Positions 1 to 41,470 of a DNA stretch of 42,920 nucleotides are shown here, in pieces (the first letter of the stretch is position 1; each line of letters opens with the position of its first letter). The stretch is from a virus. Taxonomy: Duplodnaviria; Heunggongvirae; Uroviricota; Caudoviricetes. The translations under genes were made by a program, and so were the position numbers. The stretch covers positions 1 through 42,920 of IMG/VR virus record IMGVR_UViG_2541047955_000001; one strand, 5' to 3'. The notes below the pieces were generated by a model. It was given only the letters and a program-made list of their open reading frames with translations. It ran no database searches and had not been told where the DNA came from.

Positions 1-1254
1 ATGCTGGAACAAATGGGCATTGCCGCGAAGCAAGCCTCGTATAAATTAGCGCAACTCTCCAGCCGCGAAAAAAATCGTGTGCTGGAAAAAATCGCCGATG
101 AACTGGAAGCACAAAGCGAAAGTATCCTCAACGCTAACGCGCAGGATGTTGCAGACGCGCGTGCCAATGGCCTTAGCGAAGCGATGCTTGACCGTCTGGC
201 ACTGACGCCCGCACGGCTGAAAGGCATTGCCGACGATGTGCGCCAGGTGTGCAATCTCGCCGATCCGGTGGGGCAGGTAATCGATGGCGGCGTACTGGAC
301 AGCGGCCTGCGTCTGGAGCGCCGTCGCGTGCCGCTGGGGGTGATTGGCGTGATTTATGAAGCGCGCCCGAACGTGACGGTTGATGTTGCTTCCCTGTGCC
401 TGAAAACCGGTAACGCGGTGATCCTGCGCGGCGGCAAAGAAACCTGTCGCACTAACGCTGCAACGGTAGCGGTGATTCAGGACGCCCTGAAATCCTGCGG
501 CTTACCGGCGGGTGCCGTGCAGGCAATTGATAATCCTGACCGTGCGCTGGTCAGTGAAATGCTGCGTATGGATAAATACATCGACATGCTGATCCCGCGC
601 GGTGGGGCTGGTTTGCATAAACTGTGCCGCGAGCAGTCGACAATCCCGGTGATCACAGGCGGTATAGGCGTATGCCATATTTACGTTGATGAAAGCGCAG
701 AGATCGCTGAAGTATTAAAAGTGATCGTCAACGCGAAAACTCAGCGACCAAGCACATGTAATACGGTAGAAACCTTGCTGGTAAATAAAAACATCGCCGA
801 TAGCTTCCTGCCCGCATTAAGCAAGCAAATGGCGGAAAGCGGCGTGACGTTACACGCAGATGCTGCTGCGCTGGCGCAGTTGCAGACAGGCCCCGCGAAG
901 GTGGTGGCGGTTAAAGCCGAAGAGTATGACGATGAGTTTCTGTCATTAGATTTGAACGTCAAAATCGTTAGCGATCTTGACGATGCCATCGCCCATATTC
1001 GTGAACACGGCACGCAACACTCCGATGCGATCCTGACCCGCGATATGCGCAACGCCCAGCGTTTTGTTAACGAAGTGGATTCCTCCGCTGTTTACGTTAA
1101 CGCCTCTACGCGTTTTACCGACGGCGGCCAGTTTGGACTGGGGGCGGAAGTTGCGGTAAGCACACAAAAACTCCACGCGCGCGGCCCAATGGGGCTGGAA
1201 GCACTGACCACTTATAAGTGGATCGGCATTGGTGATTACACCATTCGTGCGTAA
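1..1254 (+). CDS. proA: gamma-glutamyl phosphate reductase
   Basis: 417-aa ORF; sequence matches E. coli ProA as recalled ([30 protein letters not shown]... YTIRA); host chromosomal gene. Confidence 0.97.
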
Positions 1255-1368: not shown

Positions 1369-1444
1369 GCCGATATAGCTCAGTTGGTAGAGCAGCGCAT
1401 TCGTAATGCGAAGGTCGTAGGTTCGACTCCTATTATCGGCACCA
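1369..1444 (+). tRNA. thrW: tRNA-Thr (anticodon CGU)
   Basis: 76-nt cloverleaf GCCGATATAGCTCAGTTGGTAGAGCAGCGCATTCGTAATGCG...ATCGGCACCA; anticodon loop TTCGTAA; classic P22 attB tRNA. Confidence 0.93.
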
Positions 1445-18105: not shown

Positions 18106-18180
18106 GGGTCAGTCGTATAAAGGTCATTACGGAAGGCTGTTAACCTTCTTATCGTGGTTCGAGTCCACGCTGTCCCGCCA
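18106..18180 (+). tRNA. tRNA-like, Asn (GUU) anticodon, imperfect stems
   Basis: 75 nt ending CCA; anticodon stem GAAGG/CCTTC, loop CTGTTAA; T-loop TTCGAGT; one T-T mismatch in acceptor and D stems. Confidence 0.45.
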
Positions 18181-18185
18181 AATAT

Positions 18186-18261
18186 GCTGGTTTAGCTCCA
18201 ATGGTAGAGCGGTCGCCTTGTAAGCGAATGGGTAGCGGTTCAAGTCCGTTAACCAGCACCA
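18186..18261 (+). tRNA. tRNA-Thr (UGU)
   Basis: 76 nt; 7-bp acceptor stem GCTGGTT/AACCAGC; D stem GCTC/GAGC; anticodon loop CTTGTAA; T-loop TTCAAGT; 3' CCA. Confidence 0.6.
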
Positions 18262-26915: not shown

Positions 26916-27177
<262 letters not shown>

Positions 27178-27200
<23 letters not shown>

Positions 27201-27678
27201 TTTAGTTCTTGCGGCATTACGTAAGCTCGGTGTGGCATCAAATGCCACGTTAACCGATGTCGAACCGCAGTCTATGGAAGACGGCGTCAACGACCTTGAA
27301 ATGATGATGGCTGAATGGCTTGGCGGTGATGCGTCACCTGGTATCAACGTTGGCTACATTTTCGCTGATGCAGATGTCGCTCCAGATCCTGGCGATGAAC
27401 ACGGTTTATCAAATAACGCTATCAATGCCGTCATTTTCAACCTTGCCTGCCGCATTGCTCCGGATTATGCGCTGGAAGCGTCTGCAAAACTTATAACCAC
27501 TGCCAGATACGGGAAAGAGCGACTCGTCAAACTGTCTGCAATGGACAGAGCAAAAGCCGCTAAATGTAAGTCCGGTTATCCAAACCGTATGCCTGTTGGT
27601 AGCGGTAACAAGTTGGCGAAGTGGAACGGTTGGAATTACTTCCACCGAAAGGAACCTTGCGATAACGGGAGCGAATAA
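27178..27678 (+). CDS. head-completion / tail accessory protein gp4
   Basis: 166 aa from internal ATG; [30 protein letters not shown]... matches P22 gp4 as recalled. Confidence 0.85.
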
Positions 27679-29096
27679 TGCCGATTCAGCAACTTCCGCT
27701 TATGAAAGGTGTCGGCAAAGACTTTAGAAACGCTGACTATATCGACTATATGCCAGTGAATATGCTGGCTACACCCAAAGAAATACTCAACAGCAGCGGA
27801 TATCTTCGCTCATTCCCGGGCATTGCCAAACGTTCTGATGTGAACGGTGTATCTCGCGGCGTCGAGTACAACATGGCGCAGAGTGCTGTTTATCGCGTGT
27901 GTGGTGGCAAGCTGTACAAAGGAGAAAGTGAAGTCGGTGATGTTGCCGGAAGTGGTAGAGTATCAATGGCGCATGGTCGGACATCACAGGCGGTAGGCGT
28001 TAATGGTCAACTGGTCGAGTATCGTTATGATGGCGCGGTCAAAACCGTCTCAAACTGGCCTACAGACAGCGGATTCACGCAGTATGAGTTAGGCTCGGTC
28101 CGCGACATTACGCGCTTACGTGGGCGTTATGCGTGGTCAAAAGACGGAACTGATTCATGGTTTATCACTGACCTTGAAGACGAATCGCATCCTGACCGCT
28201 ACAGCGCACAATATCGCGCAGAATCGCAGCCGGACGGCATCATCGGCATAGGTACATGGCGAGACTTCATCGTCTGCTTTGGTTCATCGACGATTGAGTA
28301 TTTTTCCCTGACTGGTGCAACCACCGTTGGTGCTGCTTTGTATGTCGCCCAGCCATCGCTGATGGTGCAGAAAGGCATTGCCGGAACTTACTGCAAAACG
28401 CCGTTTGCTGATTCGTATGCGTTTATCAGCAATCCGGCAACGGGTGCGCCGTCTGTATACATCATCGGCTCCGGTCAGGTATCACCAATCGCCAGCGCGA
28501 GCATTGAGAAAATTCTTCGCTCCTACACTGCTGATGAACTGGCTGATGGCGTGATGGAATCTCTGCGATTTGATGCGCATGAGTTGCTGATTATCCACCT
28601 TCCGCGCCATGTTCTTGTTTACGACGCATCTTCAAGCGCCAATGGTCCGCAATGGTGTGTGTTGAAAACTGGCCTGTATGACGATGTGTACCGCGCTATC
28701 GACTTCATTTACGAAGGCAATCAGATAACGTGCGGCGATAAGCTGGAGTCCGTGACCGGGAAATTGCAATTCGATATCAGCAGCCAGTACGACAAGCAAC
28801 AGGAACACCTGTTGTTTACTCCGTTGTTCAAAGCAGATAACGCCAGAGTTTTCGACCTTGAGGTTGAGTCGTCAACTGGAGTTGCGCAGTATGCTGACCG
28901 CCTTTTTCTCTCTGCAACCACTGACGGCATCAATTACGGGCGTGAGCAGATGATTGAGCAGAATGAACCGTTCGTTTACGACAAACGCGTTTTGTGGAAG
29001 CGTGTCGGGCGCATCAGGAAAAATGTCGGCTTCAAATTGCGCGTTATCACGAAGTCACCTGTCACTCTGTCTGGTTGCCAGATAAGGATTGAGTAA
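27678..29096 (+). CDS. tail accessory protein gp10
   Basis: 472 aa, same size as P22 gp10; N-terminus [24 protein letters not shown]. Confidence 0.85.
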
Positions 29097-30049
29097 TGGC
29101 TGATTCGAATCTCAATGAGCCGGTAACAATTCAGGCTACACGACTCGATACATCAATCCTTCCACGCAATATCTTCTCACAGTCGTATCTACTTTACGTT
29201 ATCGCACAGGGCACTGATGTTGGTAACGTGGCTAACAAGGCCAACGAAGCAGGGAAGGGGGCTTATGATGCACAGGTGAAGAATGATGAGCAGGATGTCA
29301 CCCTTGCAGACCATGAATCCAGAATTGAAGCTGCTGAAGCAACTCTCATCAATCATGAAAATAGAATTGCAGCAGCGGAAAGCACTCTTGCAGATCATGA
29401 AACAAGGATTACGGCTGCTGAAACAGAGCTGGCTGATCACGAGACGCGAATTGCTGCCAATGAATCTGAGTTAGCAAACCATGATGCGCGCATAACTCAG
29501 AATACAACTGATATCGACGCACTTGATACCAGGCTCACAGCGGCAGAGGGAAGTATTTCGACGCTACAAAGCACAGTTGGTGATCACTCAACAAGAATAT
29601 CTGCGCTTGAGTATGCCACCACGCGCAAGAAATCAGAGGTTGTTTACTCAGGAGTATCAGTAACCATTCCAACAGCGCCGACCAACCTTGTTAGCCTACT
29701 GAAAACGCTCACGCCGTCATCCGGCACGTTGGCACCATTCTTCGACACCGTTAACAACAAGATGGTTGTGTTCAACGAGAACAAAACCTTGTTCTTCAAG
29801 CTGGCGATCGTCGGGACGTGGCCCAGCGGAACAGCCAACAGGTCAATGCAGCTAACCTTTTCCGGCTCTGTTCCTGACACACTGGTAAGCAGCCGCAACT
29901 CGGCGACAACGACCGATAACATCCTGTTAGCTACGTTCTTCAGCGTGGATAAAGACGGCTTTCTTGCCACAAATGGCAGTACGTTAACCATTCAGTCGAA
30001 TGGTGCGGCGTTTACTGCCACAACCATCAAAATCATTGCGGAGCAGTGA
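29096..30049 (+). CDS. tail needle gp26 with extended C-terminal domain
   Basis: 317 aa; conserved needle N-terminus [25 protein letters not shown]; coiled-coil repeats; ~90 extra C-terminal residues vs P22 gp26. Confidence 0.8.
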
Positions 30050-30528
30050 TGGAAATAAAGCTCATCGATAATCCGGTGAAGCTTGCAGAATTCCTCAACA
30101 ACCCGGCAAACACGGGAAATATCGTAGACAGTGGAGATAAATACTACATCAAGCCTGATGCGGTATATCTCGGCATCTACGAAGGATTAGTGCTGGCTGG
30201 GGTTCATGAAGTGCGTAACTTCTGGCATAGCGTTGTTGAATGCCATGCTGTGTACGACCCCGGATTCCGAGGCGAATATGCACTGCAAGGGCATCGATTA
30301 TTCTGCAAATGGCTTCTCGAAAACTCACCATTCCTTAACAGCATCACCATGGTTCCTGACATCACCAAATACGGACGGGCAATTATCCGTTTGCTTGGCG
30401 CTACCCGTGTTGGTCACCTTGATGATGCTTATACCAGCAATGGAAAGCCTGTAGGCATCACGATTTATCAGTTACCGCGCTCAAAATACGAGGAGCTAAA
30501 GAATGTTAATTTTCCAGATTGCCAATAA
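30046..30528 (+). CDS. gp14-position protein
   Basis: 160 aa; assignment by synteny (after gp26, before gp7) only. Confidence 0.45.
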
Positions 30529-31177
30529 GCACCTCAGCAAAGCTGTTTACTGCAAAGGCGGCAGTGATGGCGGTTCAAAAGCCCAGGCACGCGCAACTGA
30601 AAAGGGTATCGAATTGCAGCGTGAAATGTGGCAAACGAACATGCAAAACCTTGCACCGTTCACGCCACTCGCTCAACAGTACGTATCAGAGTTGCAGAAT
30701 CTTTCCTCTCTTCAGGGGCAAGGTCAGGCGCTTAACCAGTATTACAACTCCCAGCAGTACAAAGACCTTGCTGGTCAGGCGCGTTACCAGAGTCTGGCAG
30801 CAGCAGAGGCAACGGGTGGATTAGGCTCTACAGCAACAGGAAACCAGTTAGCATCAATCGCACCTACACTCGGTCAAAACTGGCTGTCAGGTCAGATGAA
30901 CAACTACAACAATCTGGCAAATATCGGCCTTGGTGCTCTTACAGGTCAGGCAAACGCTGGACAAAACTACGCCAACAACGTCAGCCAGTTGTATCAACAG
31001 CAGGCAGCAGCATCTGCGGCTAATGCTAACCGACCATCAGGACTGCAATCAGCCTTGGGAGGTGCCATGAGCGGTGCGGCATCAGGGGCGATGATTGGCT
31101 CTGTGGTGCCTGGAATAGGTACAGCTGTTGGCGCTATTGGTGGCGGTATTATCGGTGGTCTTGGATCATTGTTTTAA
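30503..31177 (+). CDS. ejection protein gp7
   Basis: 224 aa; Gly/Gln/Ala-rich with Gly-rich hydrophobic C-terminus; synteny and size match P22 gp7. Confidence 0.6.
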   Translation: MLIFQIANKHLSKAVYCKGGSDGGSKAQARATEKGIELQREMWQTNMQNLAPFTPLAQQYVSELQNLSSLQGQGQALNQYYNSQQYKDLAGQARYQSLAAAEATGGLGSTATGNQLASIAPTLGQNWLSGQMNNYNNLANIGLGALTGQANAGQNYANNVSQLYQQQAAASAANANRPSGLQSALGGAMSGAASGAMIGSVVPGIGTAVGAIGGGIIGGLGSLF

Positions 31178-31186
31178 GGTGGGAAT

Positions 31187-32599
31187 ATGGCTACTTGGCA
31201 ACAAGGAATCAACTCAGGCGGCTTTCTTGCTGGTATCGGTGGGCAAAACTCAAATGCGCCAAAGGCAAGTGATGTAAGTGAGGCGTTGGCCTATATTCGC
31301 CAGAACAACGAAATGGAGCGTTCAGGTCGCAATAACATCGGCCTTCAGGCGTTGCAGGGACTGGGTAGTGTCGCTCAAACATATCAAGCCGCAAAGCAAC
31401 AGGAAGCGGATGCTGCATTCCAAAAAGAATATGCGGCAGCCATCCAGTCAGGTGATCGGCAGCAGGTTCGAGATCTGATGACCAAATATCCTGGTCAATT
31501 AGAGAAAATTCAGTCTGGTATGAAGTGGGCAGACGAAGACCAGCGCAATTCTATCGGCACCTTAGCGGCTGGCGCTCGCCTTGCGGCCTCGTCTCCAGAA
31601 GCAATGCAATCATGGCTGCAAAACAACGCCAAGGAACTGACTCGCGTCGGTGTTGACCCTAACAGCGTTGCTCAGATGTATCAGCAGAACCCTTCAGGAT
31701 TTGGTGAGTTTGTTGATCACCTTGGGATGGCTGCTCTCGGTCCGATTGACTACTTCAATGTTCAGGACAAGATGGCTGGTCGTGAGATTGACCGAGGCAG
31801 ACTGGCAGAGACAATCCGCAGCAATCAGGCTGGTGAAGCACTTCAGGCGAGAGGGCAAAACCTTTCCTATCAGTCAGCAATGACTGGGCACAATATCGCA
31901 GCACAGCGCTTGGCTCTGGATCAGCAAGAGTTCGGGTTTAAGATGCAGCAAGCGCAGGAAAAGGCACAGCAGTTGATTAGCGAAGCACCTAAGCTGTCAG
32001 TAAACATGGAAAAAGGCATCGAGACAGCTGTAAACAATGCCACAGCATCATCAAACTCAGCCAATTCCATGAGTGCGCTTGCTCAACAGTTCAGAGCAGA
32101 AAAACCAACGACAGGTTTGTTCGGTAACGCACAGAACATGTTCGCAAAACTTACCGGAAGCGATACGACATTGCGTGATTTGCGCATTCGCCAAAATGCC
32201 CTTGTTAACAGTCAGGTTCTTAAATTCCTACCTCCCGGCCCAGCAACGGATAAAGACGTTGAGATCGTTCGACAGGGTGCGCCAACTGACATGGATAACC
32301 CTGAGACGGTCGCAAGATGGCTTGATGCAATGGCAAACCTTGAGCGACGAAACGCGCAGTTTAATGAGTTTAAAGCCGAGTGGATGAGCGCGAATGGCAA
32401 CCCTGGACAATCGCGTAATGGCGGTCAGATATTGGGGTTGGATGTTAAAAAAGGTGAATCATTGGGGAGTGCCGTTAAGCGGTATATGTCATTGAATACT
32501 GACGCAGCGCCAGCACAAGATTCGACAACTTCAGGAGAACCACGGAATCAGGTTGGATCATATACCTCAAAATCAGGCATTCAATTTACGGTGGAATGA
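31187..32599 (+). CDS. ejection protein gp20
   Basis: 470 aa; synteny and size match P22 gp20. Confidence 0.7.
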
Positions 32600-34437
32600 T
32601 GAAAGTAACTGCAAACGGTAAGACATTTACCTTTCCTGATGGTACGAGCACCGAAGATATTGGCACCGCCATTGATGAGTATTTTGCTGGTCAGGCTGTT
32701 CAGCAACAAACAGTTAATCAGGCCAATAATGCACCAACACGGGAAGAACCATCATTGATGCAACAAGCTGGCGATTGGCTCACTGGTGGTCAAAGTGCAG
32801 GGCAAATTGCAGAACAGGCTGGTCGTGGTCTGGTAAACATACCATTTGACGTATTGCAGGGTGGCGCAAGTCTGATTAATGCAATCAGTCAGGGGCTTGG
32901 TGGGCCAAAAGTTTTGGATGATGTTTATCGTCCAGTAGACAGACCGACAGACCCCTACGCTCAAGCTGGAGAAACAATTGGCGGGTATTTAGTTCCAGGA
33001 ATTGGAACGGCAGGAAGCATGGCTATTGGATCACTGGCAGAGGCCGCAAATCAGAAAGGCGATTTCGCACAAAATGCAGCTAAAAATGCCGGAGTTAACC
33101 TTGCCGCTCAGGGTGTTCTTTCCGCAGCAGCAAAGGGAATAGGGCGTGGAATAACGGCTATAAAAGGTGATATTGCGCCAGAAGTGGCGAAGAAAATTGC
33201 CACTTCAGAATCGATGGGCGTGACACCAATGACATCTGATGTTATCCCGCCGAAAAATGCTTTCACTCGCGGCCTTACTCAGGATGCCGAGGGGGCTTTG
33301 CTCGGGACAGGCTCAAAGCGAGCGGAGCAATATGCAACGCGTAGTAAGCTGGTAAGCAATTATTTTGACCGTTTTGGTGAGTACAACCCTGATGATGTGG
33401 TGAAATCTCTGACCACCACGTTAAGGGGGCGGAAGGATGCTGCTGGCGCTGTTATCAATGACGTCACCAATAAAATGGGTAATGCCGCAGTTGATACCAC
33501 AAATACCATGAATGCTCTGAATACAGCGATCGCAAGACAGGAACGGCTTGGGACTTCAGCCAATCAAAGCCTGCTTACATCCTTGCGTAACCTACGTGAA
33601 GAATTAGCAAACCCTGCAACTGATTTGGATGTTACGTTTGATCTCTTGCGTCAGCACAGAACAGCATTTAGATCTAATGTTCAGGGAGATTCTATGGTCT
33701 TCCCCAACCAGGCAAAAGCAGCTACCAATATGGTAGAGAATGCAATGTCAAAAGACCTTCGTAACGCAGTTGCTAAAAACCTCGGTGCATCAGACGCAGC
33801 AAAATACCTTAAAGCAAATTCAGATTATGCAAACGTTTATAATAAGGTGCTTAATAAAAACATTGCTAACAAGCTCAACAAGGCAAGCAGTGAAGCCAGT
33901 CCTGAACTTATAAATACCGTTGTATTAAGCAGAAAACCATCTGACGTGAAACGAATCTGGAGCGCATTGGATGATAAAGGGAAAGATGCTATGCGTGCAG
34001 CTTACGTCAGCAAAATAGCGGAAAAGGCCGGTGATTCTCCAGCCAAGTTCATCACTGAAGTTAATAAGCTGAAATCTCAGTCAGGTGGTGAAATTTACAA
34101 CACTATTTTTTCTGGAAAGCACATGAAAGAGCTTGATTCTCTTCATGAAGTTCTACAGCAAACAGCAAGGTCAGACACCGCAAATGTAGTAACTCAGACG
34201 GGGCAATCGCAAGCCAACCGGATAAGGACGATTGGCGCAACTGCGACTCTTGGCGTATCAATGGGGCTTGAGGCTGGCTTTGGTGCAATGATGCGTTTGT
34301 ATGAGTCTAAAGCAGCAAGGAATGCTCTCTTACGTTTGGCAAACACCAAAGCAGGAACACCAGCCTATGAAAGAGCGCTGAATAACGCCGCAAATGCCAT
34401 CAGACCAATACTTGCCAATGATGCAACTGATCGCTAA
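32596..34437 (+). CDS. ejection protein gp16
   Basis: 613 aa; N-terminus [22 protein letters not shown]; size and synteny match P22 gp16. Confidence 0.75.
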
Positions 34438-35097: not shown

Positions 35098-35147
35098 TGA
35101 GTAGCCACTCCTTAGTTTTGAGCAGAACACCGGATGATAATGTTTTG

Positions 35148-35399
35148 TTATGTGTCTTTTGGGATTCTATCCAGTAACTCGTTGGAAATTTTATCAAGTA
35201 AAGATTTTATTTGTTTAAGATCTAATGATTTGTCTACTGATGAGACGTCAGATGATAACGCATCCTCAAGAATTTGAACTATCTCTGAGTTCATAGATCG
35301 ACCGTTTCGTTTAGCCCTTTCCGCAATAGCACTACGCATGCCGTCAGGCATTCTAACCGTAAATCTTTCTATGAAATTTGATTCGTCTTTTTCTGACAT
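35148..35399 (-). CDS. ribbon-helix-helix regulator (Arc/Mnt superfamily)
   Basis: 83 aa from internal Met; FTVRMPDGMRSAIAERAKRNGRSMNSEIVQILEDAL is a typical RHH core. Confidence 0.6.
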   Translation of the reverse strand: MSEKDESNFIERFTVRMPDGMRSAIAERAKRNGRSMNSEIVQILEDALSSDVSSVDKSLDLKQIKSLLDKISNELLDRIPKDT

Positions 35400-35439
35400 T
35401 TTCTTATTCGCAAGGCATATGAGCAATAAAAAACACAGT

Positions 35440-35505
35440 AGCATCATATTGACATTATGAGCAATGGCATCATAATGGTGTCATGACATCATGGTGATGT
35501 CATTA
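35440..35505. promoter_or_regulatory. divergent promoter/operator of immI-like region
   Basis: TTGACA-17 nt-ATAATG overlapping the near-palindrome ATGGTGTCATGACATCAT (GTCATGAC core). Confidence 0.4.
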
Positions 35506-35519
35506 TGACGGAGATATTG

Positions 35520-35696
35520 ATGATGAGCGATGTTCTTTACAGTGGTCGTAAAAGTCAGAGTTTCCAGCTTCGTTTGCCAGCGCGAATGAAGGAGGAGATC
35601 AGACGCGTAGCTGAAATGGATGGAATTTCTATCAACTCTGCGATTGTGCAGCGACTGGCTAAAAGCCTGAGAGAGGAAAGAGCTAATGCCCAGTAA
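35520..35696 (+). CDS. Arc-like ribbon-helix-helix repressor
   Basis: Track ORF 35505-35696; start at ATGATG after GGAGA; FQLRLPARMKEEIRRVAEMDGISINSAIVQRL RHH core. Confidence 0.6.
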   Translation: MMSDVLYSGRKSQSFQLRLPARMKEEIRRVAEMDGISINSAIVQRLAKSLREERANAQ

Positions 35697-35769
35697 AAAT
35701 AGTGAAGCCCGGAAGTGCGCGAACACAAACCGGGCCTCTATGTCAGTAACCGTACTCAAGGAAACTAAC

Positions 35770-36408
35770 ATGAATATTGTAGCAAAATCAGATTATAACT
35801 TCCAAGGATTCACTTTTAACCCTGTAACAGAGGGCGGGTCTATCTGGTTTACCTCCACCGAACTAGCTAAGGCTCTCGGCTATAAAAAAACTGATGCCAT
35901 CAGCCAAATTTATGCCCGTAATGCTGACGAATTTTCCGACTCAATGTCATTGACCCTCAATATGAAGGTCAACGGAATAAACAATAGCTTACGTAACAAA
36001 TCGGTCAGAGTTTACTCACTCCGAGGCGCTCACTTGGTGGCGATGTTTGCTTCTACGCCCAAGGCCAAAGAGTTCCGCCGCTGGGTGCTGGATATTTTGG
36101 ATCGGCAGGCAGAATGCTCACCGATTGCAAAACAGTTTACTGACGAAGAACTGGTTAATCTCTGCTACTTACAATTGTGGATGGAGAAGAGTCAACAAAT
36201 GTGCAAACACATCTACCCTGGAATGAAGCAAATTGGTTCTGAGCTTTCAGGAAAGATTTACGATATTGCATATGAGACTCGCTACATGTCAGAAGAAACC
36301 AAGAAATCGCTTCTTCGTGAAATGAAGAATCTTGATCCCAACAATTTTGTCGTAAAGAACGCTCAGCCAATGCTGGCAAAACTTCGCGGCGAGGAATGGA
36401 TTCATTGA
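35770..36408 (+). CDS. Bro-N domain antirepressor-like protein
   Basis: Track ORF 35686-36408; start at MNIVAKS with AAGGA RBS; Bro-N signature FNPVTEGGSIWFTSTELAKALGY...RVYSLRGAHLVAMFASTPKAKEFRRWVLD. Confidence 0.7.
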   Translation: MNIVAKSDYNFQGFTFNPVTEGGSIWFTSTELAKALGYKKTDAISQIYARNADEFSDSMSLTLNMKVNGINNSLRNKSVRVYSLRGAHLVAMFASTPKAKEFRRWVLDILDRQAECSPIAKQFTDEELVNLCYLQLWMEKSQQMCKHIYPGMKQIGSELSGKIYDIAYETRYMSEETKKSLLREMKNLDPNNFVVKNAQPMLAKLRGEEWIH

Positions 36409-38373: not shown

Positions 38374-41088
38374 ATGTTTATTATGCCAGAACAATTATAC
38401 AACGTTGTTGTTTCACAACCAAGTCAGTTATTTACTTTAGCTCGCTCGTTTAAAGCAAATGCCAATGGCAAAATTTATATCGGTAAAATTGACACTGACC
38501 CTGTAAATCCTGAAAACCAGATTCAGGTTTATGTGGAGAACGAAGACGGTTCTCACGTTCCTGTTTCGCAACCAATAATCATTAACGCTGCCGGATATCC
38601 GGTATATAACGGACAGATTGCCAAATTCGTAACCGTGCAAGGCCATTCTATGGCTGTTTACGATGCTTATGGCACTCAGCAGTTTTATTTTCCAAATGTA
38701 TTAAAATACGATCCAGATCAGTTTGGCCCAGACTTCAAAGAGCAGTTATCTCAATCAGGAGCATACATTAATGATGATTCAAAAGGTGATGCATTAATTG
38801 GGGTAAGGCAGCCATTTACCGGGGCTGCAACTATAACTCAGCATGAAAACAATGCTCTTTTCTTAAATGTAAAACAATTTGGAGCAATTGGGGATGGGAA
38901 ATATCATCCATTATCTGAGTGGTTTTCTTCAATTTCTGAAGCAAAATCCTTATATCCTTTTGTTGACTCATTATCTCAGTCAATAGACTGGGCCGCGTGG
39001 CAAGCTGCCCTTAACACAGGAAAGGTTATTTATGGTACTGATAATGCGTATGTAATAACGGATACGTTAACACCTGTTTCTGGTGGTGGGATAATTTGTC
39101 TTGGTGTGGGCAAATGGGTCTCAGGATATACTGCAACATTTGCTCCTGATATTACCACAGGGACCACATTCCTGATGTACGGGGTAGGAAATAAAAAATA
39201 TACTGTAGATTGTGTTTCTAATATGGATGTTAGTGGTGGTGTGGTTTCTAACCCATCTTCCGAAGACCCGTATACAACAACGGCACCTGCGTCATCATAT
39301 GATTTATTGGATTTTACTAACGGTGATGCTAATGGGACTACAAGAGCCACGCTTAAACCATTCTCTGCCGCAATATTGATGCCTGAGACAGGATGTGTTC
39401 GCCTTGAGAACTTTCGTGTTGTTCCATATTTCAATGGGCTGGATGGTTATAAAGACATTGCAAATACCGGTCTTGGCGATGAGTGGGATGTAGGTATTTG
39501 GTCACGTGCGTCTTTTGGCAATGAATACCGCAATTTGCAGGTGGTTGGATACTGGCGCAAGACGGCACTTTTAAAAACGAACATTCCTGTATCTGGCACG
39601 CTGGCCGCTCAGGGCGAGGATGAAAACTATTATCACTGTAGATTCCAAGGATTCAAGGGTATTTCGATCCGCGCCCATGATGTATTCCGAATTACAGCGG
39701 TAACGTCCAGCACTATCGAAATACCATGGTCAGCAAGCCACACCTTCGAAACGTCCGGGGTTTTAAGATCTGGAGGCAGGAATTTCACTTATTCAGGATT
39801 ATCCGTATCCGGTGATAAGTTAGTATTTACTGGAGTGTCTAACGCTTCTGAGGCAACAGTAGGTTCTACTATACGGCGAAATGACATAGATAACTTTGGT
39901 ATGGCGGGAACGCAATTTTTCGATTGCTACATTACCAGCCTGTATCACCACACACATCTGCTTGCCACATCGCAATACCTGTCTCAACCATTCAGCCGAC
40001 CATCAGAGTGTATGGAGGTTTCAGGGGAACCAGTTCGCGGTGTACAGGTACATGCAGGAACCATTCAGGGATGGGATGATGTTCTTATTCATCTACATGA
40101 CTGTGGAAATATGAACTTTTACAGTACATATTTCGAAAGCCAGCAAGCATATGTAACTATAAATGGTGGTAATGCTATTGGTTATGGAGCACGTATGATA
40201 GCTTCCCGGCAATCAACAAGCTCATTACCATATGCAGCAGGGAATACTCGAGTGCTTAGAATGGTCGGGTGCTCTGAAGGCAATGGCGTTGACTGGGGTC
40301 CTGTATTTAACAACTATACAGGAGGAAGATATAATTCCGGAGACGGTGTATTTAACCCCCGCGATGCATTTATAGACCATAAATCTCTTCCTGAGCAGTC
40401 AGGAGGTGAGTCAAGACTCGTATCACAAAAAGGAAATGCCAGAGTAGTATGTGGTGTTGGTAAAACTGTACTGCTTGGACCAACGTCAGGAGATTGTAAT
40501 TTACAGAGTAATACTGGAAGTTTAAATATTAGAAGTGGGATAAGAGTAAGAATCGGTCACGCTGATGGAACAGACTGGTGGTTGGCAGATGCTAATAAAA
40601 TAGCTCCTGTTGATGATAATGTTAAAGCCATTGGACAGCCATCAAACAGATGCTCTGTTATTTATGCAGGAACCGGGTCAATCAATACATCAGATGAAAC
40701 TCTTAAAACAAGATATGATATTCTTAATGCAGAGCGTGATGCCGCTATTGAAATAAAGTCAGTCATCTATAAATTTAAATTTAATGACTCAATTAATAAC
40801 AAAGGAATTGAGTCGTCCAGGTATCATTTTGGCGTTGGCGCTCAAACCGTAGGGGATATTCTTAGAAAGCATGGTTTAAACCCTGAGCAATATGCTTTTT
40901 GGTGTTACGATGAATGGCCTGACGTATGGGATGAAGAGGTGATAACTGAAGAGAGCACAGATCCTGATACAGGTGAGAAAATTTATTCTCAATATAAAAC
41001 AGGAGATATGATTCTTGTAAAAAAAGCAGGAGGACGCTACGGAATTCGTTATGACGAATTGGCTATGTTTATATTAATGGCAATGTAG
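38374..41088 (+). CDS. tailspike: P22/Sf6-type head-binding domain, beta-helix depolymerase, C-terminal S74 chaperone domain
   Basis: 904 aa; conserved N-terminal head-binding region; FGAIGDGK beta-helix start motif; C-terminal SDETLK...[10 protein letters not shown]74 signature; true start may be ATG at 38383. Confidence 0.9.
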
Positions 41089-41422: not shown

Positions 41423-41470
41423 ATTCGTAATGCGAAGGTCGTAGGTTCGACTCCTATTATCGGCACCATT
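41423..41470. other. attR core (displaced 3' fragment of thrW)
   Basis: 48-bp exact copy of thrW 3' portion 1399-1446; no 5' tRNA half present. Confidence 0.85.

Follow-up and report, generated by a model that had tools for sequence, protein, structure and literature searches.

Needles of P22-like phages and the needle gene of the window

The tail needle most similar to the protein analyzed here is that of prophage HS1 of Escherichia coli HS (EcHS_A0316; knob structure PDB 4K6B), a protein of 317 aa with a plug domain, a 16-heptad shaft and a knob that begins at residue 174. Its virion-binding N-terminal domain is 98% identical to that of Sf6, its shaft has 16 heptads compared with 11 in Sf6 and P22, and its knob is encoded by codons 174–317 (Leavitt et al. 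2013, PMC3741392). Gp9 of Shigella phage Sf6 (282 aa; knob structure 3RWN) has the same three-domain plan. Gp26 of Salmonella phage P22 (233 aa; 2POH, 3C9I) has a homologous plug domain and proximal shaft, with the NxxQD Ca2+ motif and LADHExRI heptads, followed by a tip (residues 141–233) whose fold is unrelated to the knob; the P22 and Sf6/HS1 tips have been described as "completely different" (PMC3741392). In P22 gp26, NxxQD forms a Ca2+-coordinating layer with N at a and Q at d (PMC13580157). The placement of the needle in the tail hub is known from cryo-EM of the Sf6 tail (PMC9728967).

We analyzed a 42,920-nt stretch of DNA (the window), which comprises a whole P22-like prophage of about 40 kb at thrW (Table 1). 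One of its late genes, an ORF of 317 codons with an ATG start and a TGA stop, almost certainly encodes a tail needle of the HS1 subtype of Sf6-type knobbed needles, a trimeric protein with plug, shaft and knob, and belongs to an apparently intact P22-like (Lederbergvirus) E. coli prophage. The predicted protein is identical to the HS1 needle at 307 of 317 positions (97%) with no gaps; one of the ten substitutions lies in the knob.

Table 1. Features of the needle gene, its neighbors and the prophage borders, in window coordinates
Feature	Position	Strand	Evidence or remark
proA	1..1254		
thrW (tRNA-Thr CGT)	1369-1444		integrase gene comes next
att, 48-bp exact repeat of the 3' part of thrW	1399-1446 and 41423-41470		
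gp4 homologue (tail adaptor)	27178..27678	+	PF11650 P22_Tail-4, E=1.4e-58; start taken from the RefSeq annotation of a near-identical prophage
gp10 homologue (tail hub / packaged-DNA stabilisation), putative binding partner of the needle	27678..29096	+	PF11134 Phage_stabilise, E=6e-300
Tail needle gene (P22 gene 26 / Sf6 gene 9 homologue), HS1 type	29096..30049	+	ORF, 317 aa
N-terminal domain, aa 1-62; predicted plug, binding the gp10 tail hub and closing the channel	29096..29281	+	aligned to P22 gp26 residues 1-62
Coiled-coil shaft, aa 63-173(174)	29282..29614	+	16 unbroken heptads from the N63-x-x-Q66-D67 polar core motif; 14-residue LxxHxxRIxxAExx repeats
C-terminal knob, aa 174-317, TNF-like jellyroll	29615..30046	+	PF16532; 152/153 identical to 4K6B; Foldseek
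gp14-like DUF2824 protein, translationally coupled to the needle gene	30049..30528	+	PF11039, E=6e-64; TGATG overlap
gp7 ejection protein homologue	30503-31177	+	PF25688 P22_gp7, E=8.5e-90; named by RefSeq in near-identical prophage
gp20 ejection protein homologue	31187-32599	+	named by RefSeq in near-identical prophage
gp16 ejection protein homologue	32596-34437	+	named by RefSeq in near-identical prophage
Tailspike, 904 aa	38374..41088	+	PF09008 head-binding domain 4-116 (E=3.7e-64); C-terminal Peptidase_S74 chaperone domain

Searches against protein families gave a consistent picture. The protein matched the Pfam family PF16532, "Sf6-type phage tail needle knob" (E=4.7e-108; 359 bits against a cutoff of 27), and PHROG 1030, "tail needle knob" (E=2.9e-135), which indicates that its conserved needle features are no chance pattern. 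PHROG 1219, "tail needle protein", spans residues 1–111, the N-terminal third. Identical DNA (100%) is present in E. coli AHB29, where RefSeq labels the product "tail needle knob protein" (WP_021575666.1). A scan against NCBIfam yielded no specific model, with only sub-threshold coiled-coil noise (SMC, PspA and similar), and the RefSeq name evidently derives from a rule other than an NCBIfam model. In identity, domain boundaries, conserved ligand residues, heptad register, fold and gene context, the protein has every testable feature of the Sf6/HS1 needle family, and it lacks the tip type of P22 and HK620.

This type of needle is already known from biochemical description, crystallography (4K6B, 3RWN) and genetic tests, and the annotation is correct but ordinary. 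Its significance beyond correct annotation is therefore small; the useful outcome is a corrected reading of the gene, in which a TNF-like knob has been swapped in, the shaft has five more heptads, and HK620 is not a knobbed relative.

Plug, shaft and knob

The preliminary description, made from the sequence alone, had recognized a conserved needle N terminus followed by coiled-coil repeats of the LADHETRI type, and both observations hold. In a PDB sequence search, residues 1–139 aligned to the P22 gp26 structures 2POH and 3C9I (E~4e-42), and residues 1–62 to the 62-residue gp26 fragment 8EAP_B (E=3e-27). When the needles of P22, HK620, Sf6 and HS1 were aligned, the N-terminal domain proved to be near-invariant. 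Downstream of it, with the heptad register anchored on the conserved N63-x-x-Q66-D67 motif, the a/d register of the shaft runs continuously from N63 to L171 (a: NLILILILILIILIVI; d: QHAHAHAHNHNLALHL). The count obtained in this way was 16 heptads for the window needle and for HS1, and 11 for Sf6 and P22. His occupies core d positions six times in the window shaft, compared with twice in P22. LADHETRI itself occurs exactly twice (residues 98–105 and 112–119); its variants, among them LANHDARI, keep the 14-residue period, with three close variants in all. At the DNA level the period corresponds to a 42-nt tandem repeat, detected by Tandem Repeats Finder at 29299-29402. An AlphaFold2 (AF2) monomer model, built on a 22-sequence alignment, has a single helix from residue 42 to residue 175 with pLDDT above 90.

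The same description had proposed that the C-terminal segment is rich in Thr and Ser and forms a globular knob of the Sf6 type, and had suggested structure prediction as a check, with disorder and the lack of a fold as the outcome that would speak against it. Ser and Thr together make up 27.8% of residues 174–317 and 13% of the N-terminal domain. A disordered or low-complexity C terminus, which so Ser/Thr-rich a composition might suggest, was ruled out by identity to crystal structures and by the fold search. Residues 165–317 are identical at 152 of 153 positions to the crystallised HS1 knob (4K6B) and at 150 of 153 to the Sf6 gp9 knob (3RWN), as found by PDB sequence search. The AF2 model of this part is a folded beta-sandwich, for which Foldseek returned 4K6B and 3RWN as the best matches in the PDB (E about 1e-20, target TM 0.8), confirming the proposed knob. 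The next matches were PRD1 P5, the exosporium protein ExsFA, TNF-like lectins, EDA-A1, 4-1BBL and C1q-like proteins. Within the monomer model, the apex loops (residues 259–274) have pLDDT below 50, which is not surprising for loops packed around the threefold axis of the crystal trimer.

An independent mark of the domain boundary comes from knob-only proteins of unrelated phages (Ackermannviridae, T4-like, Aeromonas and Dickeya phages), whose homology to the needle begins at residues 173–175.

The ligand contacts described for the HS1 knob comprise E181, K235, S283, D285, L290 and K312 for L-glutamate, and the S266-R267-N268 triad, which surrounds a phosphate at the apex (PMC3741392). All six glutamate-contact residues are present in the window needle under the same numbers as in HS1, and the triad is found at its published positions. 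By homology, then, the knob would trimerise and bind three L-glutamates, which in the crystallised homologues are trapped at the subunit interfaces; the residues of the pocket are the same. The one knob substitution relative to HS1, S237A, lies two residues from the glutamate contact K235; at least 90% of the aligned homologues have Ser at position 237.

Role of the needle and its tip

Three chains would form the needle, as judged by homology with P22 gp26, Sf6 gp9 and the HS1 needle. The N-terminal ~60 residues would enter the gp10 hexamer as a plug for the portal-tail channel, and the plugged channel would keep the packaged DNA inside the virion. Residues 63–174, as a 16-heptad trimeric coiled coil about 5 nm longer than the Sf6 or P22 shaft, would project the knob beyond the tailspikes; the knob itself (residues 174–317) would be a TNF-like jellyroll about 45 Å across. 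Digestion of the surface polysaccharide by the tailspikes would bring the knob to the outer membrane, and the needle would then be expelled at the start of infection. The proteins gp7, gp20 and gp16 would leave next and build a conduit, and the DNA would follow. Experiments with P22 hybrids suggest that a change of tip can alter the speed of DNA delivery and that the tip is dispensable for host recognition.

P22 gp26 and Sf6 gp9 are known to be part of the virion, to plug its tail channel and to leave it at infection, and 97% identity to the HS1 needle makes the same function probable here. Trimer formation, plugging, release and a kinetic role are taken from the literature on P22, Sf6 and HS1 hybrids, and what is said of kinetics and function would carry over by analogy with P22 hybrids in Salmonella and with Sf6. 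The sequence holds nothing against the reading as an HS1-type needle.

It had also been suggested in the preliminary description that the needle tip may affect host range. The published experiments do not bear this out and point to the kinetics of DNA delivery instead. When the P22 tip was replaced by the HS1 knob, or the P22 tip together with most of the shaft by Sf6 sequence, yields and plaques on Salmonella were normal (PMC3741392). The K+ release rate of the HS1-knob hybrid was 40–70% of wild type, and that of the Sf6 hybrid was not reduced; the HS1 knob and a foldon tip each slowed DNA delivery, which was unchanged in the Sf6 hybrid (PMC3741392). Leavitt et al. 2013 considered a role of the tip in host specificity unlikely (PMC3741392).

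The strongest competing reading of the knob is that of a receptor-binding module whose recognition of a particular outer-membrane component would set or narrow the host range. Placed at the distal tip, the knob should be the first part to reach the outer membrane, and Sf6 depends on OmpA/OmpC as secondary receptors (PMC9728967). The receptor-binding knobs of PRD1 P5 and of adenovirus fibre have the same fold, as do TNF-like lectins such as BC2L-C and PLTL. PRD1 spike P5, the adenovirus fibre knob and the TNF/C1q superfamily share with the needle the arrangement in which a trimeric TNF-like jellyroll ends a trimeric shaft. However, sequence identity to the window knob is about 10–14%, so the likeness is one of fold only, and receptor binding, proven for those knobs, would be a putative function of the needle knob.

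The experimental evidence argues against a receptor module on several counts. Plating and growth of P22 on Salmonella are normal with either the Sf6 or the HS1 knob, foldon-tipped P22 virions are functional, and mutation of the glutamate-binding residues has no visible effect (PMC3741392). The host-range-expansion mutations of Sf6 all lie in the tailspike, and the OmpC-binding region has been placed there as well (PMC9400499). Moreover, in 2013 the divergence among the knob domains of P22-like phages did not exceed 4.9% over many hosts (PMC3741392), unlike that of a fast-evolving receptor-binding protein. Because Leavitt et al. 2013 allow for a knob function specific to the native host (PMC3741392), we regard the receptor idea as unlikely rather than excluded. 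The experimentally supported determinant of host range in this group of P22-like phages is the tailspike, and any prediction of host range for the prophage of the window should start from its 904-aa tailspike.

Prophage integrity and needle length

The late operon follows the P22 order and runs terminase, portal, scaffold, coat, small ORF, gp4, gp10, needle, gp14-like, gp7, gp20, gp16, immI-like region and tailspike. The agreement with P22 includes the stretch from gp4 through gp10, needle, gp14, gp7 and gp20 to gp16, and the succession gp10-needle-gp14, with the needle upstream of the ejection-protein genes, is common to Sf6, HS1, HK620 and P22. Among the ejection proteins encoded at 30503..34437 (+), a match to PF16928 Inj_translocase was found (E=3.6e-71). 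The needle start overlaps the gp10 stop (TAATG), the needle stop overlaps the start of the next gene (TGATG), and RBS-like (Shine-Dalgarno-like) sequences, AAGGA or GGAG, lie a few bases upstream at both junctions, the pattern expected of translationally coupled virion genes. Two antisense ORFs on the minus strand (29189..29440 and 29644..29991) were set aside as chance ORFs: the plus-strand protein is 97–100% conserved and accounts fully for the region.

More than 100 E. coli genomes carry a few-gene remnant that includes the needle gene (Leavitt et al., PMC3741392). Part of the gene was matched in 1087 of 5426 complete E. coli genomes and at least 80% of it in only 164 (~3%). The gene of the window could on these grounds be seen as a non-functional leftover of a decaying prophage, a reading to which we give very little probability. 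A full 40-kb prophage with a complete gene set lies between the 48-bp att repeats in thrW; its integrase, immunity, replication, lysis and virion genes are all intact ORFs; and the needle ORF has no frameshift and keeps all structural residues. The prophage is apparently intact, and the remnant reading, true of many E. coli genomes, was therefore rejected here.

The HS1 prophage is of the same type and occupies the same thrW integration site, with its needle's L-glutamate- and phosphate-contact residues at positions identical to those of the window needle. It differs from the prophage of the window in terminase, coat, ejection proteins and tailspike (636 aa in HS1, 904 aa in the window). DNA identity between the two needle genes is uneven, at 90% over the N-terminal domain, 98% over the shaft and 96% over the knob, which is the usual mosaicism.

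The needle is 84 residues longer than P22 gp26, close to the ~85 residues (against 233 aa) noted in the preliminary description, where the difference was ascribed to an extended C-terminal domain. That explanation holds in part: the larger tip does add residues, but it is an unrelated replacement, and ~40% of the added length belongs to the shaft. Sf6 gp9, which has a near-identical N-terminal domain, the same gene position and a knob identical at 150 of 153 positions, differs from the window needle in length solely by a 28-aa and a 7-aa shaft insertion, together five heptads or about 5 nm. The 84 residues are therefore split between shaft and tip, about 33–35 of them making up five shaft heptads and about 51 the larger tip (144 aa compared with 93 aa).

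That the C terminus is simply the P22 gp26 tip (beta-helix and inverted coiled coil) made longer, with no separate domain, a thought prompted just by the words "extended C-terminal domain" and by the common N terminus, can be dismissed with practical certainty, since the PDB search aligned only residues 1–139 to P22 gp26 and residues 174–317 to no gp26 or HK620 chain, a forced alignment of 174–317 with the P22 and HK620 tips gave scattered identities only, the two tips are "completely different" in the literature (PMC3741392), and the Foldseek matches to 4K6B and 3RWN refute it as well. By sequence comparison, the ~144-aa knob is a non-homologous domain that replaces the 93-aa P22 tip.

HK620, which had been cited alongside Sf6 as an example of a knobbed needle, turned out to be a wrong comparison. 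Its gene 26 product (233 aa; PDB 5BU5) is about 95% identical to the window needle over the N-terminal 79 residues, DNA similarity to the window gene ends after nt 200, and the C terminus aligns with that of P22. Leavitt et al. 2013 (PMC3741392) take HK620 as the type for subtype A of the P22-tip needles. Since it ends in a P22-type tip and lacks a knob, it is no model for the C terminus of the window needle.

Shaft length varies widely among knobbed needles. We surveyed the 120 best cluster representatives from a large protein database, taking as shaft the part between the NxxQD motif and the R-K-K-S-E motif, which marks the base of the knob. Overall needle lengths in this set fall mainly at 254+7n, and 116 of the 120 shafts differ from that of the window by whole heptads. 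The shortest shafts have 7 heptads and the longest 20; lengths of 11 (Sf6), 14 and 16 (HS1 and the window) are the common classes. A 2009 paper by Bhardwaj et al. refers in its title to coiled-coil length in this needle family. The contig that encodes a 7-heptad variant stops short of the tailspike gene.

Shaft length might be an adaptive "reach" setting, with the projection of the knob past the tailspikes selected to match the depth of the host O-antigen or capsule, the variants supplied by unequal recombination between 42-nt repeats, and the six core-d His perhaps adding pH or ion sensitivity to release; as a whole we hold this to be improbable. The tailspikes that accompany 16-heptad needles are 636, 904 and 981 aa long, and the 11-heptad needle of Sf6 is paired with a 623-aa tailspike; in these few pairs heptad number bears no simple relation to tailspike length. 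As to how the length variants arise, one needle of 345 aa contains a perfect 28-residue duplication, pointing to unequal recombination between the 42-nt repeats as their source.

Residue 237 and the His ladder of the tail needle

The knob of the 317-aa tail needle differs from the crystallised domain of the HS1 needle (HS1, prophage of E. coli HS) at a single residue, S237A, where Ala in place of Ser converts FFKLSIVG to FFKLAIVG. The substituted position lies two residues beyond the L-glutamate-contacting K235. At least 90% of the aligned homologues carry Ser at knob position 237, and Ala is shared with just one of them, P0001, a 345-aa variant. In the shaft, the core d position is occupied by His in six heptads (H73, H87, H101, H115, H129, and H164), these residues alternating with Ala or Asn; four such core His are found in Sf6, two in P22, and one in HK620. 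With this polar, titratable ladder in its core, the stability of the shaft might respond to pH or ions.

Features of the window
Feature	Position	Strand	Remark
attL / attR copies	1399-1446 / 41423-41470		exact 48-bp direct repeat
tRNA-Asn (GTT), tRNA-Thr (TGT)	18106-18261	+	phage-borne; between Q-like antiterminator gene and holin gene
Small ORF	26916..27200	+	94-aa protein; PHROG 1175 (unknown function); between coat gene and gp4
CAGAGC repeat	27061-27130		inside the small ORF
Needle gene	29096-30049	+	
Needle shaft	29282-29617		
Needle codon 237	29804-29806		
Tailspike gene	38374-41088	+	904 aa; P22-type head-binding domain and Peptidase_S74

Needle relatives and the tailspike

When the needle gene was compared at the DNA level with that of HS1 (35116-36069 of sequence L004), identity varied from domain to domain, the shaft reaching 98.2%, the knob 95.6%, and the N-terminal domain 90.3%. 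The genes flanking the needle gene match HS1 only in patches, a pattern typical of mosaic exchange among P22-like prophages.

A 2013 report described the knobbed needle type as confined to phages of Escherichia and Shigella (PMC3741392). Among the matches listed, full-length knobbed needles of 316-317 aa and 72-78% identity (homologues P0063, P0066, P0070, P0072, and P0117) come from genomes of Klebsiella aerogenes, Serratia marcescens, and Serratia fonticola, with one from Klebsiella phage phiKp_30. Hence, unlike in the 2013 picture, the type now extends beyond Escherichia and Shigella phages.

The better candidate for the host-range determinant of the prophage is the tailspike, which is far longer than its counterparts in Sf6 (623 aa) and HS1 (636 aa). 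Its head-binding domain spans residues 4-116 and the Peptidase_S74 intramolecular-chaperone domain, in the C-terminal part, residues 773-835; N-terminal of the latter, the final part of the endosialidase catalytic domain is weakly matched.

Prophage borders and a repeat-bearing ORF

The sequence of the 48-bp repeat is the 3' part of thrW, and its two copies are attL and attR, the borders of the prophage. To the left lie proA and thrW; to the right, in E. coli strain AHB29, are an incomplete integrase gene, a gene of the MarR family, and the vat autotransporter toxin island. No tRNA gene is annotated in HS1 at the position matching the phage-borne pair, and both genes are present in the annotation of the AHB29 prophage.

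The small ORF occupies the same position as Sf6 gene 6 and HK620 hkbT. It contains 11.7 perfect copies of the hexanucleotide CAGAGC, translated as an (EP)12 tract. This repeat is length-polymorphic among close relatives, because it is 30 nt longer in the AHB29 prophage, which is nearly identical to this one, giving (EP)17 there, while the Sf6 and HS1 versions of the protein (61-62 aa) are without an EP tract.
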